Shown piece after piece: positions 6,001 through 33,000 of a stretch of DNA of 64,000 nucleotides (within the stretch, counting starts at the first letter, position 1; each line of letters begins with the position of its first letter). Position numbers: made by a program. The stretch comes from Escherichia coli (GTDB taxonomy: Bacteria; Pseudomonadota; Gammaproteobacteria; Enterobacterales; Enterobacteriaceae). The stretch is taken from assembly GCF_003991155.1 (NCBI RefSeq), contig NZ_CP031297.1. One strand, given 5' to 3'.

Positions 6001-9000
6001 TCAGGTGCTGTTGATTCGTTCTTCCAGCCTGTAGAGCAGTTTGTTGATCAACTCATTGACCAGCTCAAAGAGCAAGTCAAAGAAGTGATGATGGATGTCA
6101 TGAAATCAGCAGGCCAAGATGCAGCAACAGAGCAGGCGGCTGCCGCAGCATCTGAACAAGCTGCCGAAGCAATGATGGAGACTGCGACAACATGGCTTAG
6201 CACTGCCATGACGATATATACCGTCTATGTCGTTGCGATGGTGATGATCCAGATGATTTATAAGTGCGAGGAAGAAGAGTTCACTATGAACGCAAAAAGA
6301 GCGCTCAAGAATTGCACCTATGTAGGCTCTTATTGTAAATCTAAGGTGTTGGGCGCTTGTATTGAAAAAAGAGAAGCGTATTGCTGCTTCAATTCTCCGC
6401 TCTCTCGTATTATACAAGAACAGGTTCGCCCTCAATTGGGGCAGAACTTTGGAGACCCCAAAAATCCTCAGTGTGAAGGGATTCCACTAGATAAAATTGC
6501 CGAAATTGATTGGAGCAAAATTAATTTGGATGAGTGGCTTGGGATATTACAGCAGAACGGTAAATTCCCTGATCCGGCCTCAATAAATCTCGACTCGCTG
6601 ACTGGAGCAGGGAATGACTTCAATATTGACGGGACGCGGAAGAATGCTCAGGAAAGGGCGTTGGAGCGGTTGGAAGGGATTGATATTGACGCGAAGCGAA
6701 AAGAGGCGACAAACAGCATAGACCCTCAAACAGGCGCGCCAACTGGTGGTGGATAAAAAAAGGGGCCTTTCGGCCCCTTTCTCATGTAGATTGATTACGC
6801 TTCTGGGTAAACAAATAACTCTGCTTTTCCCTGATCAAGAAGGTAAGGGAAAGCAACTTTTTCGCCATTATCCAGCTCAACCGATTTTGGAGCAAGGTAG
6901 AGGTAGGCCCAAGCTGGTAGCTGTTTGCTAATAGCTGCGTAGATCGCTTGCTGAGGAGCATGGCTTGCTGCCCCATTACCGACATTCACAAAGTTGTATG
7001 CGGTCTCATGGCCTGATGTGAAGGCATACGCTGTACCTTGAACGCCAGAGACAAAATTAGGAGCTGACCCTAGGCGAGGCTCCACGATTTTCACCTTAAC
7101 GGAACACATGTCAGCTACCTTACTTTGTCCGTTCACCCACGTCGGGCAACCCCATTCATTCTTGTAGAACTGATAGGTTAGGCGACCGTCTTTGTCATAC
7201 AGAAGCGTGAAATTGGCACCCAAATCAGTCAGCGCTGACTCAATGGAAACTTTCACATGTGAAAGAAATTTGGCCTGAGCGTCTGCCGGTGAAACTGCTT
7301 CGTTAGCAGGCATCCAAGCGATCAAGCTATTGCGAGCGCCATGCTGTTTGGGGCCGATAGCCCAGTTCGCAAGGTTGACCAAGCCACCTTGCCAGTCGGT
7401 CATTCCGAGCTGAGGGGACATGTAGCCAGACAGCACGTAGGCTGCCCCAAACGTTTTGGTGTCGGTCAGACGCTCCAGCTTGTCACGCGGAACAGAAGCG
7501 TCTTGGATGCCTGTTACCAGGCCACCGGCCTCCGCGATGTTGTAAGCGCGACTGTGATTGGTTTTGTACGCTGTGGGTTCGTAACTGCTGGTGGATGCAC
7601 AGCCAGATAGAGCTGCTACAGCCAGAGCCACGGTGGTGATTAAAGCCTTTTTCATGTTGTTCTCCGTTCTTACCTGAGTTGAATCTGATTTACTTCGATA
7701 ATATCACAGCATCAAAAAATGCAACCATAAAAGACAAAAAAAAGCCCCTCGGGCGAGGGGCAAAGGTTTGGGCTGGGTTATGCTGCTTTTGTTTTCTCGG
7801 CTTCGTCTGCGATTTCCTTGTCGCCGGTTGCAGATTCCGGAGCGGCTTCGGCCACTTCACCTTCTTTGCCTTTGCTGTGGGCGGAAATGCGAGCCCGTTT
7901 CTCGATGCCGATGATTCGACCGGCCAGCTTGATGAGGCGTTGCTGCCATTGGTAAGTGGCGTCGGTGCGCTGCTTGCTGGTCAGTACGGTGTTCAGCCAG
8001 AGAGTGTCAACGATCCCCATCAGGGTATCCAGTTTGCGGATCAGGTGTGCAAACTGAGCAACCTGAGGAGAGTTGATCTCGATGGTGTATTCATTCGGGT
8101 TGGTGTAGCCGGGCATCATGTCGATGCCGTTGTCTTCCATCAGCTTGTTGAGCTGGGCGGTAGCTTTGTCCAGGTCTTCGGAGACCTTGGAAATGTGTTC
8201 CAGGATGACGGTTTCAACCTGGTCGATTTCGTCCTGCTCACCGATGATGCGAAGGATCACGTCGATGGAGAACAGGGAGTTGGAAACTCGCTCAAAGCTG
8301 CGTTCCATGACGCGCTGAGCTTGGAGGCTGTTTACTTTCAGAACTTGCTTGAAAACAGGGCGAGAGTAGTGGTTGCTGCGGTCGTTGTTTGTGTCCAGTG
8401 CTACTTGTGCTTCTGCCATTAGAGATACTCCTAAATTTGAGGTACAGATAAACGCACTGGAAAGGATAAATGCGGTCAATCTGTAACCTGACCTCTCGAA
8501 GTGCCCAAAATGGACAGTTACAGCGTTTTCTGTTTAGCAAAGGTGAGCTATATTTGAATCATCTTAGTCGCTCTGCGGCTATAGGTGAGATAGCTGGTCT
8601 CCGAAAACAAACAGCATCTAGTCTTATGCCGTATGGCATTACTTAACCCCAAGCCGGGGGCTTCTCCCGGTTTTCGGGTGTTGCCCCTGTTTTTTTTACA
8701 TAGGAGCAACACCATGCACATCATCACTTTCATTGTAGTTCTGCTTGCATCTCTGGGCGCACTGTACGTAGGCGCGAAGGCATTTGCTTTTTCCTTCATC
8801 GTTCTCGCTAAAGTGTTCCAGCGTATCGGTTTGTTCCTTTGGAACAAATTCGCAGTTCCTGCAATGCGGTCTGTACAGGCCGTCATCAAAGAACGTGCTG
8901 CCAAGGCTGAACAAGCCAAAGCAGTCGTTGAACCTGAGGTAACTCAAGTTCAAGAAGTCGCTAAACAAGAACCTGACTGGGATTATCTCGAAATCCCGAC

Positions 9001-30000: not shown

Positions 30001-33000
30001 TAATTCAAATTTCGGCTTTCTAGCTCTGGCCTTGCGCCAACGCCTGATCAAACGCTGGTCACTGATGCACTCTGTTCAACCGGAGTCTGTGTTGGAACAC
30101 AGCGCTGTTGTTACCCTGCTTTCCTACCTGGCTGGCAATATTGCCATTCAGCAAGGGAAGTCGGTGGATCTGGCAGTCATGCTTGCTCATGCTTCGTTGC
30201 ATGATGCAGCCGAGGTTCTCTGTTCGGATGTTGTAACACCGGTCAAGAAAGCAAACGCTGTTTTGCAGCGTGAGTTTGAACGACTGGAAAAGGCCGCAGA
30301 GGACAAACTCATCCAGACTCTTCCCGAAGAACTCCAGGATGCAGTCGCCATAGCCTTCGCTCCCGGTGGCTATGAACAATCACTGGTTAAGGCCTGTGAT
30401 ACCTACTCCGCTTACATCAAGTGCAAACTTGAGGTGGCCGCAGGTAATGGCCTTGAGTTCCAGGATGCTCTCAGCAAAATGGAACGTGTTGTTGCTCAGG
30501 TGAAATCGGACTTCCCGGAAATCGACGCTCTGGACAAATGGTTTGGTAACGGACTCGGCCATTCAGTAGATAAACTGCTGGCAGGGGGTAACGATGACTA
30601 ATCCAATCCCTGGCGACATCAAGATTAAGGACTTTGGCCGCGACCGGAAATTCCGTTCGGTTGATGAGCTTCAAAGCACTTTGTCAGAACAGTACAAAGG
30701 TCAGCATGTCAGCATCGTTTACCCTGCAAAGCCCAGCGGTTTACTCCGCACGGTTTTTGTCAGTGTCGATGATGCTGGTGGCGTGAATCGAACCTATGGG
30801 GACCAGTCTCCTGTCGATTTTTCTGCCATCAAAGATGACCTGTATGTACCAAGTGACCTGTAGGAGAGCACTAGCTATGGTGGTGATCATCGTAAACACA
30901 GGACACTATGAGTTTATCGGCCTTGGTGAGACCCACGGACAAGCCACAGAAGGGCTTTTGAAACGCTGGGACGAACACTGCGAACGTAATCCGGATGCTG
31001 AGTCTGGTTACATGCAGGAGCTGATAGAAGAAGGAAGCGCACAAGTTGTCGAGATGGAGCCCGGCTCCGCCGTAATTTACGGACTTGACGGCTAAGCCTT
31101 CTCAACTAACCCACTCGGGCGCATCATCCCGAGAGGGTGTGGTGCGTCCTAACCAAAAGGAATGCACTATGTCTAACTTTGAACAAGCTCTGGAGCGTAC
31201 TGACGGTAAAACACTGATTCTCAGCAATGGGAGTAAGTGGGCAGGCCAAGACCCGGACAGTATTCAGACTTTACTGGATGTCCTGGGTGACAACGTTCTT
31301 GACCCGATGTTTGAGCAGTATCACTGTTATCGCCCATACCCGTTTGAACCAATGGTGAGGACGGGGCGAAATGGCGAAATGTTCCAGCCTTGGCTTGGGG
31401 CAGCCTGCTTCTTTGGGAACTTCCTGACTGTCTCTCATGTTTTCAACATCATCACGAAAGATGACGGTGTTGTTGAGGCCTTAACAGAGGCGATCCGGAA
31501 GAATATGGCGACTGAACAGTACCAGCAGAATGCCTATGAGCGTTATGCCGGTTGGTTCTACGCTGAAACCAGCGAAGGGTTAAGGCTAGTCTCTCCAAGT
31601 GAGGCTGCCGACATCCGAGCTGGCGCAGTTTCAAAGCTGCGTTACCCAAGAAACTTCGAGGTTATGAAAACTGCGGTTCTCAAAGGTCCTCGATTTGATA
31701 CTGAATTAAGCCGCAAGGCTTCTTAACCCAAACATTAACCCCACGGGGGACATCGGTCCCTGAGGGGATGGTGTCTCCCTCTGAAATTAAGGAGATACCA
31801 ATGATTAAACAGCATTTTCAAAACGAACTGGTTAAGTGTGGATACCCGGATGATCTGACGATTGAGTACAGTCTCGGATACTGCCAGGGGGATGGCGTAG
31901 CCTTCTACGGGGATTTGAGCGTTGATGACGTCAAAGCTCTCATGAATCGCCTATTCAGCACTGAGCCCGGCCAAGTGGATGCTGTCAGCCGCGTGAAGAA
32001 CCTGATGGCACAGAAAGACATTGAGAATATGCTTTCTGTCCTCCGCGAATATGGTTCCTGTGACCTGTCCATTACTCGGAATAGTCACGGGCATCACTAC
32101 AGCCATTGGAACTGCATGAACATCGACGACAACGTGGACTTCACAGGGATCTTCCCTGATGATGATTCCATGATTGGCACCGGCATTGAAGGGATTAACC
32201 AGGATATGGTCGAGCGCTGGCAAGACCTCTGGGAACGCTTTGTGCTGGAGCTGGCGGATGATGTAAAAAGTCTTTCCAAGAAGCTCGAAGCGGACGGGTA
32301 CTCGCTGATCGAGGCCTCTCCATGCGAAGATGAAGTGGTTTGGGAACGGGCCACTGAAAACTACCTGGTGCGTGTTACTGAACTCCCTGAGCGGGATTTC
32401 GATATGGGCCACTGGGATGACGAAGTAAGAGACCAAACAATTTGTTCTATCCTGGAAGGGAAAGAGCGAGTGCTTGGCCTACGTGTTGAGGTACTCTCTC
32501 GTGAAAACGAGATTGTCCTGGGTGAAGAGAGTCTGCACGGCTTGACCGTTGCCAGTGATGACAAGAGCTACGCTGGCTACAGACGAGAACTTCTCCGGGG
32601 AGCTATCCAGCAAACCAGGGACTTTTTCTCTCGCCACCTCAAAGCGGCATAACAAGGCAGGGGGAAACCCCTGCTTTACTTCCCAAGTCTTCTTACTCAT
32701 GGTGAATACCATCAGTAAGCAGATTTTGTTCTCTTCGGAGAGCGAAAAGTGCGATAGCTGGTCGCCAAAAACAAACAGCAAATTAACGTTAATTTATTAA
32801 TCCCTGCGGGAGTCTATCTCCTGCTGGAGATACCTCCCGTTATTTCTGGAAGTATCCATGAACAAATTCCAAGACTTTAAGTTGGTTTATCGTCAAGGTG
32901 GTCGTCGCTTAGAGCGTGTCTTTACGGACACTCTTTACGCGAATGTGAAGCGTGTCGCTGACTCGTTTCCTCCGACCGTTCTTTGGCGCATTCAGCCAGC

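Follow-up and report, generated by a model that had tools for sequence, protein, structure and literature searches.

A 64,000-nucleotide stretch of Escherichia coli DNA (hereinafter the window; NCBI RefSeq assembly GCF_003991155.1, contig NZ_CP031297.1) contains a short element, hereinafter the module, that recurs eight times along a single co-oriented gene block, raising the question of what a sequence kept at so many intergenic positions does for the genes behind it. The window is the backbone of a multidrug-resistance IncC plasmid: between 8 and 20 kb it shows 100% identity to many conjugative plasmids of the IncC (IncA/C2) group, and its genes align one by one with those of pVCR94deltaX, the reference plasmid (vcrx gene names). 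Multidrug resistance is carried to a major extent by IncC plasmids and their relatives, and the module-bearing block holds genes for surviving restriction and CRISPR attack upon entry (vcrx089-090, ssb, bet, and exo). A prediction made earlier from the sequence of the window (hereinafter the original prediction) had taken the module for a promoter-like element with an RNA hairpin and an ops-like core, at the heads of gene blocks. Our analysis partly supports that interpretation: the hairpin is real, covarying, formed by the sense strand, and transcribed, and it extends to a pseudoknot with a wide distribution. We therefore read the module as a probable post-transcriptional control element, not described as such before, and not as a promoter or an RfaH site.

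A pseudoknot core supported by covariation

The eight copies, here named A to H, all lie on the + strand as originally reported, seven of them exact and one (copy G) shortened. The pattern TAGCTGG-N7-AAACAAACAGCA has seven matches in the window against none expected from 100 shuffles. The consensus as first written, TAGCTGG-N5-AAAACAAACAGCA, by contrast finds no match even with three mismatches, since its spacer is one base short (the true spacing is N6). Each full core consists of two complementary arms around the loop TAGCTGG, an A-rich linker, and a terminal CAGC. The arms read GAGA/TCTC in copy A (8587-8616, CAGC partner 8612-8615), GCGA/TCGC in copies B (9631-9660), C (14466-14495), D (18298-18327), and H (32751-32780), GAGG/CCTC in copy E (22712-22741), and GCGG/CTGC, with one G.U pair, in copy F (26494-26523); the original prediction had these pairs, including the single G.T, right. 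Copies B, C, and H are identical to each other over 80-110 nt (H to B over at least 108 nt). Copy G (29637-29657) has a stem GG/CC, the same loop, the linker CAAAA, and its CAGC partner at 29653-29656, i.e., a 2-3 bp stem with a 5-nt linker as against 4 bp and 10 nt elsewhere; this short form is also kept in pVCR94 and in an Edwardsiella plasmid.

Comparative analysis identifies the core as an H-type pseudoknot: a stem 1 of 4 bp, a loop 1 of UA, a stem 2 formed by GCUG:CAGC, one G, and an A-rich loop 3. The residues G3-C4-U5-G6 of the heptaloop UAGCUGG are complementary to the conserved CAGC that ends the tail. Among 115 distinct cores the four pairs of stem 1 are paired in 93-97% of cases, with three to four Watson-Crick types (CG, AU, UA, and GC) and the occasional G.U at each position; stem 1 is thus supported by compensatory changes. 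Taken jointly, the five tested pairs are paired in 87.5% of cells, compared with 57% in shuffles (0/500 reach the observed value) and 34-53% in slid controls. Stem 2 likewise shows compensatory change. The loop substitution G6->A, recovered by relaxed scans and a targeted metagenome scan, arose in three independent lineages (stems GCGT/ACGC, AAGG/CCTT, and GTGG/CCAC), all of which carry the matching tail C->T; there is no uncompensated variant, and one copy has a G.U pair (Fisher's exact test on approximate counts, p ~8e-6). Both loop/tail variants occur on one Vibrio harveyi plasmid. More diverged modules, reached via AcaB homologs, keep GCUG...CAGC with an A-rich linker of 5-12 nt, and a stem 1 of 2-3 bp goes with a 5-nt loop 3 both in copy G and in one distant copy. 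For five of the eight copies in the window, a folding program limited to nested structures chooses the helix GCUG:CAGC.

A covariance model, a check proposed with the original prediction, was built from the 115 distinct relatives. It scores the seven full copies at 50.8-54.4 bits (E ~1e-11) and the shortened copy, at 29629-29661, at 17.9 bits (E 0.02). It has no match on the - strand, in the resistance region of the window (36-64 kb), or in pVCR94 at 1-50 kb and 90-120 kb. Searches of the modules against Rfam 15 families gave no match at the gathering threshold or at E up to 10, and ARAGORN found no tRNA-like gene. As a structured RNA the motif is new, though its general kind is known; it would also count as a new RNA family, one whose covariation is unusually clean and whose members lie in mobile elements of Gamma-, Beta-, and Alphaproteobacteria.

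We also observed a resemblance between the loop and tail of the module in all copies, as UA-GCUG-G...CAGC-A, and the base of helix 12 of E. coli 16S rRNA (CCCUA-GCUGGUC-UGAGAGGAU-GACCAGC-CACAC; its identity as 16S was confirmed by BLAST). Copy A and 16S rRNA share 9 nt (UAGCUGGUC), and the 7-mer match could be due to chance (~0.1-0.3).

Flanking helices and the folding strand

The core is embedded in a larger set of helices. A hairpin, H0, abuts every core; its representative in copy B (9604-9628, + strand) reads UUUUGUUCUC-UUCG-GAGAGCGAAAA. RNAalifold run on 18 relatives predicts seven pairs for H0, many of them G.U and hence A.C mismatches on the - strand, and single-sequence folds agree; most relatives have U.G or G.U at several H0 positions. 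On its 3' side the core usually has a GC-rich hairpin. The full unit of copy B (9524-9742, + strand) comprises, in order, the hairpins Ha, Hb, and H0, the pseudoknot, a palindrome, the GC hairpin H2, and a Shine-Dalgarno hairpin. Equivalent full units on the same strand are those of copies C (14379-14577), D (18134-18397), E (22621-22811), F (26360-26591), and H (32653-32857), and the units of copies A (8559-8713) and G (29610-29720) start at H0. The upstream 'boxes' prove to be strands of helices: GAUUUUG pairs with CGAAAA to form the lower stem of H0, and GCUUUCC pairs with GGAAAGC to enclose ~26 nt, this partner being present in 46 of 55 cases versus 10 for a control motif.

Over 200 nt the sense strand is predicted to be 5.1 kcal/mol more stable than its complement, and it is the more stable strand in 94, against 32, of 126 distinct modules; shuffles give a bias of +0.65 kcal/mol, and the G+T content is 0.49. 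What bears on the putative formation of the pseudoknot in RNA is this modeled folding bias together with published evidence of transcription. The T-runs that the original prediction had noted with GC hairpins within the leaders (8685-8692 and 9108-9112) sit in the loops of Shine-Dalgarno-bearing hairpins, not behind terminator stems; the module hairpins have no U-tracts behind their stems and do not resemble intrinsic terminators.

Two palindromes occur within these flanks. The first, TTTCACATGTGAAA, is the IncC parS core, the site of ParB (PMC10954446), and lies at 22647-22660 and 7251-7264 of the window, the former inside the loop of the GCUUUCC/GGAAAGC helix of unit E; in units of three other elements (loci L005, L006, and L020), the corresponding helix likewise encloses this palindrome. 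The second, the perfect palindrome AATTAACGTTAATT, directly follows the pseudoknot on its 3' side in copies B (9661-9674), C (14496-14509), and H (32781-32794), as well as in relatives from V. harveyi, Vibrio albus, Providencia, Photorhabdus, Shewanella, and Citrobacter, and is found nowhere else in the loci examined. We considered AATTAACGTTAATT as the IncC parS and rejected it, parS being TTTCACATGTGAAA.

The module within AcaCD-dependent transcripts

The gene order of the locus is traN, sfx, acaB, and then ~40 co-oriented genes, which include the cobS-like pair vcrx089-090, ssb, bet, exo, a DUF3150 gene, a VWA/CobT-like gene, methyltransferases, and a Toprim primase. The gene acaB itself (7778-8419, - strand), coding for an activator with a DUF1845 domain, is divergent from the leader of copy A. 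Between positions 9000 and 36000 of the window the spacers separating block genes are a uniform 60-95 nt with a GC hairpin, as against ~190-265 nt for the gaps at modules, and almost every block gene has GGAG 5-9 nt before its ATG.

The binding of AcaCD has been mapped by ChIP-exo (chromatin immunoprecipitation followed by exonuclease treatment), and start sites by 5' rapid amplification of cDNA ends (Carraro et al., 2014; their Table S3). What defines an AcaCD operator is the palindrome GCCCNDWWWGGGC, lying between -64 and -37 relative to a start site that depends on AcaCD and bound in ChIP-exo. Mapped onto the window, the boxes fitting this motif lie on the + strand at 8497-8525 (divergent acaB/vcrx087 promoters), 18146-18174 (vcrx098), and 29547-29575 (vcrx114), and drive three units, here numbered 1 to 3. 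The motif is unrelated to the module and absent from it, and the boxes lie outside the module; they are found upstream of copies A, D, and G only (for copy D, in the vcrx098 leader, ~150 nt upstream), and copies B, C, E, F, and H have none. These boxes refute the suggestion, made as an alternative in the original prediction, that the module is itself a binding site of an AcaCD/FlhDC-type activator. The vcrx087 start site corresponds to window 8559-8561, with copy A beginning ~25 nt downstream, and the vcrx114 start site corresponds to window 29610-29612, with copy G again beginning ~25 nt downstream; both mapped start sites fall 3-4 nt before H0. These start sites are thus upstream of the module, contrary to an arrangement in which the element precedes all transcription starts, and copies A and G therefore stand at the 5' end of the RNA.

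Deletion of acaCD lowers the expression of vcrx087-vcrx125 to ~0-50 units, versus hundreds to thousands with AcaCD, the exceptions in the block being vcrx097 and the minus-strand gene vcrx104. Since the block depends on AcaCD but has only three AcaCD boxes, and since reverse transcription-PCR showed cDNA primed in vcrx094 to contain vcrx087, vcrx089, and bet, i.e., one mRNA spanning copies A to C (Roy et al., 2020; PMC7498323), the internal copies are transcribed within long mRNAs. Among them are copy B, upstream of the cobS-like anti-restriction gene vcrx089 within the vcrx087-vcrx094 mRNA, and copy C, upstream of the DUF3150 gene vcrx094. A module heads each of the three units, with one or two more inside. 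Units 1 and 2 are bounded by the only strong terminators within the block, both on the + strand: an intrinsic terminator with a 13-bp stem and T-run at 17753-17782 and a terminator-type alignment of hairpin and U-run at 29518-29552. Across the end of unit 1 expression falls ~24-fold, from 1372 for vcrx096 to 56 for vcrx097.

The module accordingly marks the starts of gene blocks, right after three AcaCD promoters and in five long gaps (~190-265 nt) inside transcripts. The next start codon lies 82-123 nt downstream of each window copy (loop-to-start distance), and among relatives the tail-to-open-reading-frame distance has a median of 75 nt (141/182 instances).

Distribution across Proteobacteria

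Scanned with the core pattern, a database of one genome per species yielded at least 120 stretches, where ~9 chance matches are expected. The matches listed form multi-copy, same-strand arrays. Among them are Gammaproteobacteria (Photorhabdus, Shewanella, Vibrio, Marinomonas, Marinobacter, and Citrobacter) and Betaproteobacteria (Rhodocyclaceae, Accumulibacter, a complete Dechloromonas chromosome, Gallionella, and Lautropia), and their occurrence in Alphaproteobacteria is supported by isolate genomes of Pseudovibrio. Several matches with Beta-type sequences in metagenome-assembled genomes labeled Actinobacteria, Hydrogenedentes, or Bryobacterales are likely binning errors. With only two module matches in viral contigs, the element is not borne by phages.

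Of all genes, acaB is the most consistent neighbor of module arrays: all six loci reached through AcaB homologs of 44-59% identity have at least a weak model match on the strand of the divergent array. An AcaCD box precedes the module in Gamma-type elements, and none was found in the Beta-type elements examined; the same module architecture thus stands behind different promoters, which points to a role after initiation. The arrays carry genes for ssb, recT/bet, exo, ArdA, Antirestrict, methylases, and Toprim primase, and IncC and the V. harveyi plasmid do not have the same gene blocks between their modules. Clustering of open reading frames on the module strand was noisy in GC-rich contigs, where the top cluster was an antisense frame of acaB.

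Three further loci bear on these associations. On a contig of Candidatus Glomeribacter gigasporarum (locus L145, 237-3583) the array divergent from an AcaB homolog has six consecutive ArdA-domain genes, RecT, and YqaJ, which underlines the nature of these arrays as anti-restriction islands. On a 4.3-Mb chromosome (locus L148, 9804-9824) an isolated AcaB homolog lies beside a single module-like pseudoknot with no anti-defense array, and the pair looks like the remnant of such an element. In pVCR94, at ~116040-116095 on the - strand, the region upstream of acr1, where an action of AcaB has been reported, contains GGAAAGTGC and AGTGCGGTA in the order of the copy F leader and on the strand opposite acr1, possibly by chance. 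As a module-like target of AcaB this site was not convincing, for it comprises only two 9-mers on the opposite strand.

The rptI repeats and rival explanations

The DNA of the module has been described before in another role. Roy, Huguet, Grenier, and Burrus (2020, NAR; PMC7498323) reported intergenic repeats, rptIa-f, in pVCR94, which Bet/Exo anneals in repairing breaks made by Cas3. The reported deletions of 23,702, 10,310, and 9,268 bp equal the distances between modules B and H, A and D, and B and D in pVCR94, and rptI is therefore the module; copy B corresponds to rptIb and copy H to rptIf, and some repeat labels in their table do not fit an order in which A precedes B. The repeats were presented as conserved in IncC, with a 32-bp segment, the length of the core, reported in SGI1. 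Their description went no further than direct repeats that Bet/Exo anneals, with the suggestion that palindromes may pause Exo; the repeats were presented as restricted to IncC relatives and SGI1, and the account included no RNA structure, covariation, pseudoknot, transcript position, or RNA role (PMC7498323). We found no later mention of rptI in the literature searched. The RecHS recombination site (Hegyi et al.) was also compared with the module and rejected as a different, single locus.

Could the repeats then be mainly patches of homology for single-strand annealing by Bet/Exo, serving the deletion of cleaved segments and the exchange of gene blocks between elements? The Bet/Exo-dependent deletion sizes (PMC7498323), the identity among copies B, C, and H, and the differing blocks between IncC and the V. 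harveyi plasmid all speak for such a role. Annealing, however, requires identity and not complementarity; it leaves unexplained the covarying stem, the loop-tail compensation, and the sense-strand G.U bias, as well as the conservation of the 7-nt loop and CAGC across Alpha-, Beta-, and Gammaproteobacteria with diverging flanks. We consider it very unlikely to be the main function of the repeats. The annealing role of rptI is real, yet it provides no account of the covariation; the copies are also Bet/Exo substrates because they are direct repeats, and we regard this as a side effect of the modules. A single-stranded DNA element of conjugation, be it a signal (ssi) at which the plasmid Toprim primase or host DnaG would prime the strand being transferred, or an equivalent of the Frpo promoters, is another explanation that starts from the DNA. 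The gene content of the block matches the anti-defense islands of leading regions, and the module loop contains CTG, the start triplet of DnaG. Leading-region islands of conjugative elements carry Frpo in repeated form, each a structured element upstream of co-oriented genes for anti-defense functions, ssb, and methylases (Samuel et al., 2024; PMC11541004), and the products of vcrx089-090 are required de novo in the recipient (Roy et al., 2020; PMC7498323). A single-stranded promoter must nonetheless fold on the template strand, and Frpo does so as a long hairpin that recreates -35/-10 (PMC11541004), whereas the module is small, folds on the sense strand, and shows no long stem with -35/-10 hexamers. 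Moreover, with start sites 3-4 nt before H0 the module forms the 5' end of an RNA, and in a backbone of at least 120 kb the copies are confined to 24 kb that lie tens of kb away from oriT. The module thus lacks the properties of an Frpo/ssi-type promoter, and we judge this explanation unlikely.

Among explanations at the level of transcription, the one put forward in the original prediction was processive antitermination, either through ops-like non-template DNA read by RfaH or a plasmid NusG paralog, or through an RNA of the nut/put type that modifies polymerase for passage through long structured spacers. Long co-oriented arrays with copies just after promoters and again inside transcripts suit such a system, as does a hairpin with a fixed loop and a fixed single-stranded stretch, which resembles boxB/boxA. 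In the lambda nut and HK022 put sites, too, a leader RNA hairpin with a fixed loop and variable stem lies beside a conserved single-stranded tract. The module differs from these in that its loop pairs with its tail, that many copies occur per operon, and that the unit-end terminators are still effective, the terminator at 17753 stopping unit 1 as described above; with only two real terminators in 27 kb there is also little to antiterminate, and no boxA-like string was seen by eye on the + strand against the known consensus. As to ops, three of the eight copies have GGTAGC, copy F has GCGGTAGC exactly as had been noted, and both ops and the module lie in leaders of long horizontally acquired operons. 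For the ops element, GGCGGTAGCGTG, the most damaging substitutions are G5A, T6A, G8C, and T11G, and the transcription bubble measures 10-11 nt (Zuber et al., 2018; PMC5995543). When the module copies are aligned on GCGGTAGC, G5A is seen in five of eight and G at position 11 in all eight, so that the modules depart from the 12-nt consensus GGCGGTAGnnTG at positions among those most critical for it (G5, T6, G8, and T11). Besides, the ops signal spans 12 nt of non-template DNA and has a loop of 2 nt; the 15-nt hairpin and tail pairing of the module cannot form inside such a bubble, and its covarying partner strand and tail pairing fall outside the ops footprint. The expectation of no NusG/RfaH-like gene was borne out, as neither NusG, RfaH, nor KOW appears in the PGAP annotation of pVCR94 (1-50 and 60-120.6 kb, 50-60 kb being left out) or of the matching IncC region, an annotation-based result with no separate hidden Markov model scan. 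We therefore set the ops form aside, and even the general form of antitermination appears distinctly unlikely. A small-molecule riboswitch with an aptamer like preQ1-I is highly improbable. The preQ1-I aptamer is a minimal H-type pseudoknot with a short stem and an A-rich 3' tail pairing with the loop, and the module shares this architecture, with invariant loop and junction bases and a covarying stem; its loop, however, has 7 nt compared with ~12 nt in preQ1-I, it has no link to queuosine genes, Rfam searches at E up to 10 still gave no riboswitch match, the genes that follow are heterogeneous in function, and there is no obvious mutually exclusive expression platform. Finally, its high conservation at the heads of gene blocks could mark a promoter or activator-binding site (AcaCD/FlhDC-like, or for a dedicated sigma factor or polymerase), in keeping with the 'promoter-like' label it was first given. 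This we practically dismiss: ChIP-exo places AcaCD at another motif upstream of three copies only, the mapped start sites precede the module, expression drops to zero or close to it when AcaCD is missing, no sigma-70-like -35/-10 site was found at any module, and neither covarying arms around an asymmetric fixed center nor the presence of both loop/tail variants on one V. harveyi plasmid fits a dimeric DNA binder or such a site.

A candidate post-transcriptional role

On balance we incline, by a little, to the reading that the module is a cis-acting mRNA pseudoknot in AcaCD-dependent polycistronic mRNAs, which would act after initiation on the downstream cistrons. The free variation of stem 1, set against a loop and stem 2 that hardly vary, suggests to us that a conserved partner would read the module. 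The candidate we prefer is the 30S subunit via S1, with the module serving as a standby site at which ribosomes would have to load anew ahead of structured ribosome-binding sites. The nearest functional precedent is the tisB pseudoknot: it binds S1 and 30S, ~100 nt ahead of a ribosome-binding site that is sequestered (Romilly, Deindl, and Wagner, 2020; PMC7708055). The tisB +42 mRNA and the module-bearing leaders are alike in having a pseudoknot near the mRNA 5' end, beside single-stranded RNA, and the geometry of a standby site was indeed found here, with a structured element and single-stranded RNA ~100 nt upstream of a structured ribosome-binding site. The two differ in that there is no sequence similarity and that tisB has one copy per mRNA, as against eight copies with a near-invariant loop and stem 2; a link to S1/30S here would be by analogy. 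Alternatively, the partner may be a protein encoded by the element, such as AcaB/DUF1845 or the plasmid SSB. The latter candidate is prompted by analogy with T4 gene 32. The module might also act in mRNA processing and stabilization.

Several observations weigh against this post-initiation pseudoknot. Single-stranded + strand DNA would fold identically, and the covariation of stem 2 is carried by one of its four pairs, the other three never varying. Transcript ratios over the internal copies range from 0.3x to 3x, both up and down, and no effect on RNA abundance is visible; with no consistent step at these copies, an internal promoter or attenuator is unlikely as well. Shine-Dalgarno pairing is 0.61 for module-led genes versus 0.59 for other block genes (p 0.38), for which reason an argument from sequestration was dropped, and S1 binding alone would not explain the near-invariance of stem 2. 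Because Shine-Dalgarno pairing is no stronger and S1 binding leaves stem 2 without an account, a dedicated protein partner is as plausible as a 30S/S1 standby site.

A still broader possibility, which we offer tentatively and rate as rather doubtful, is that the modules form a widespread new pseudoknot family serving as the shared post-transcriptional operator of the anti-defense/establishment island in IncC-like plasmids and related conjugative elements, read by one partner (S1/30S, AcaB/DUF1845, or SSB). If so, the translation or stability of ~40 genes (ssb, bet/exo, anti-restriction genes, methylases, and primase) would be tied to a single signal, for example free single-stranded DNA just after transfer, and a post-transcriptional layer would be added to the AcaCD/AcaB circuit. 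The conservation of the rptI repeats would be explained if one fold governed block expression, and the pairing of loop UAGCUGG with CAGC would offer a single conserved target for testing or blocking plasmid establishment.

Other features of the region

The gene directly 3' of the copy A leader, vcrx087 (8714-9034, + strand), codes for a small membrane protein whose C-terminal end is DWDYLEIPTYLRKGKELVW. Distant homologs (loci L022, L027, and L047) keep DW-x-Y-(D/L)-(I/V)-P-T-(F/Y)-(L/I)-R-(K/R)-G. A conserved C-terminal peptide of FtsZ binds FtsA and ZipA, and the resemblance of the vcrx087 C-terminus to it hints, by analogy, at a possible interaction with the division machinery. In the resistance region of the window there are two Rfam AAC_AAD_leader/attI matches, at 42158-42227 and 47042-47113, each adjoining an open reading frame of 337 aa on the opposite strand (41055-42068 and 45939-46952, - strand), which indicates two class 1 integron platforms.

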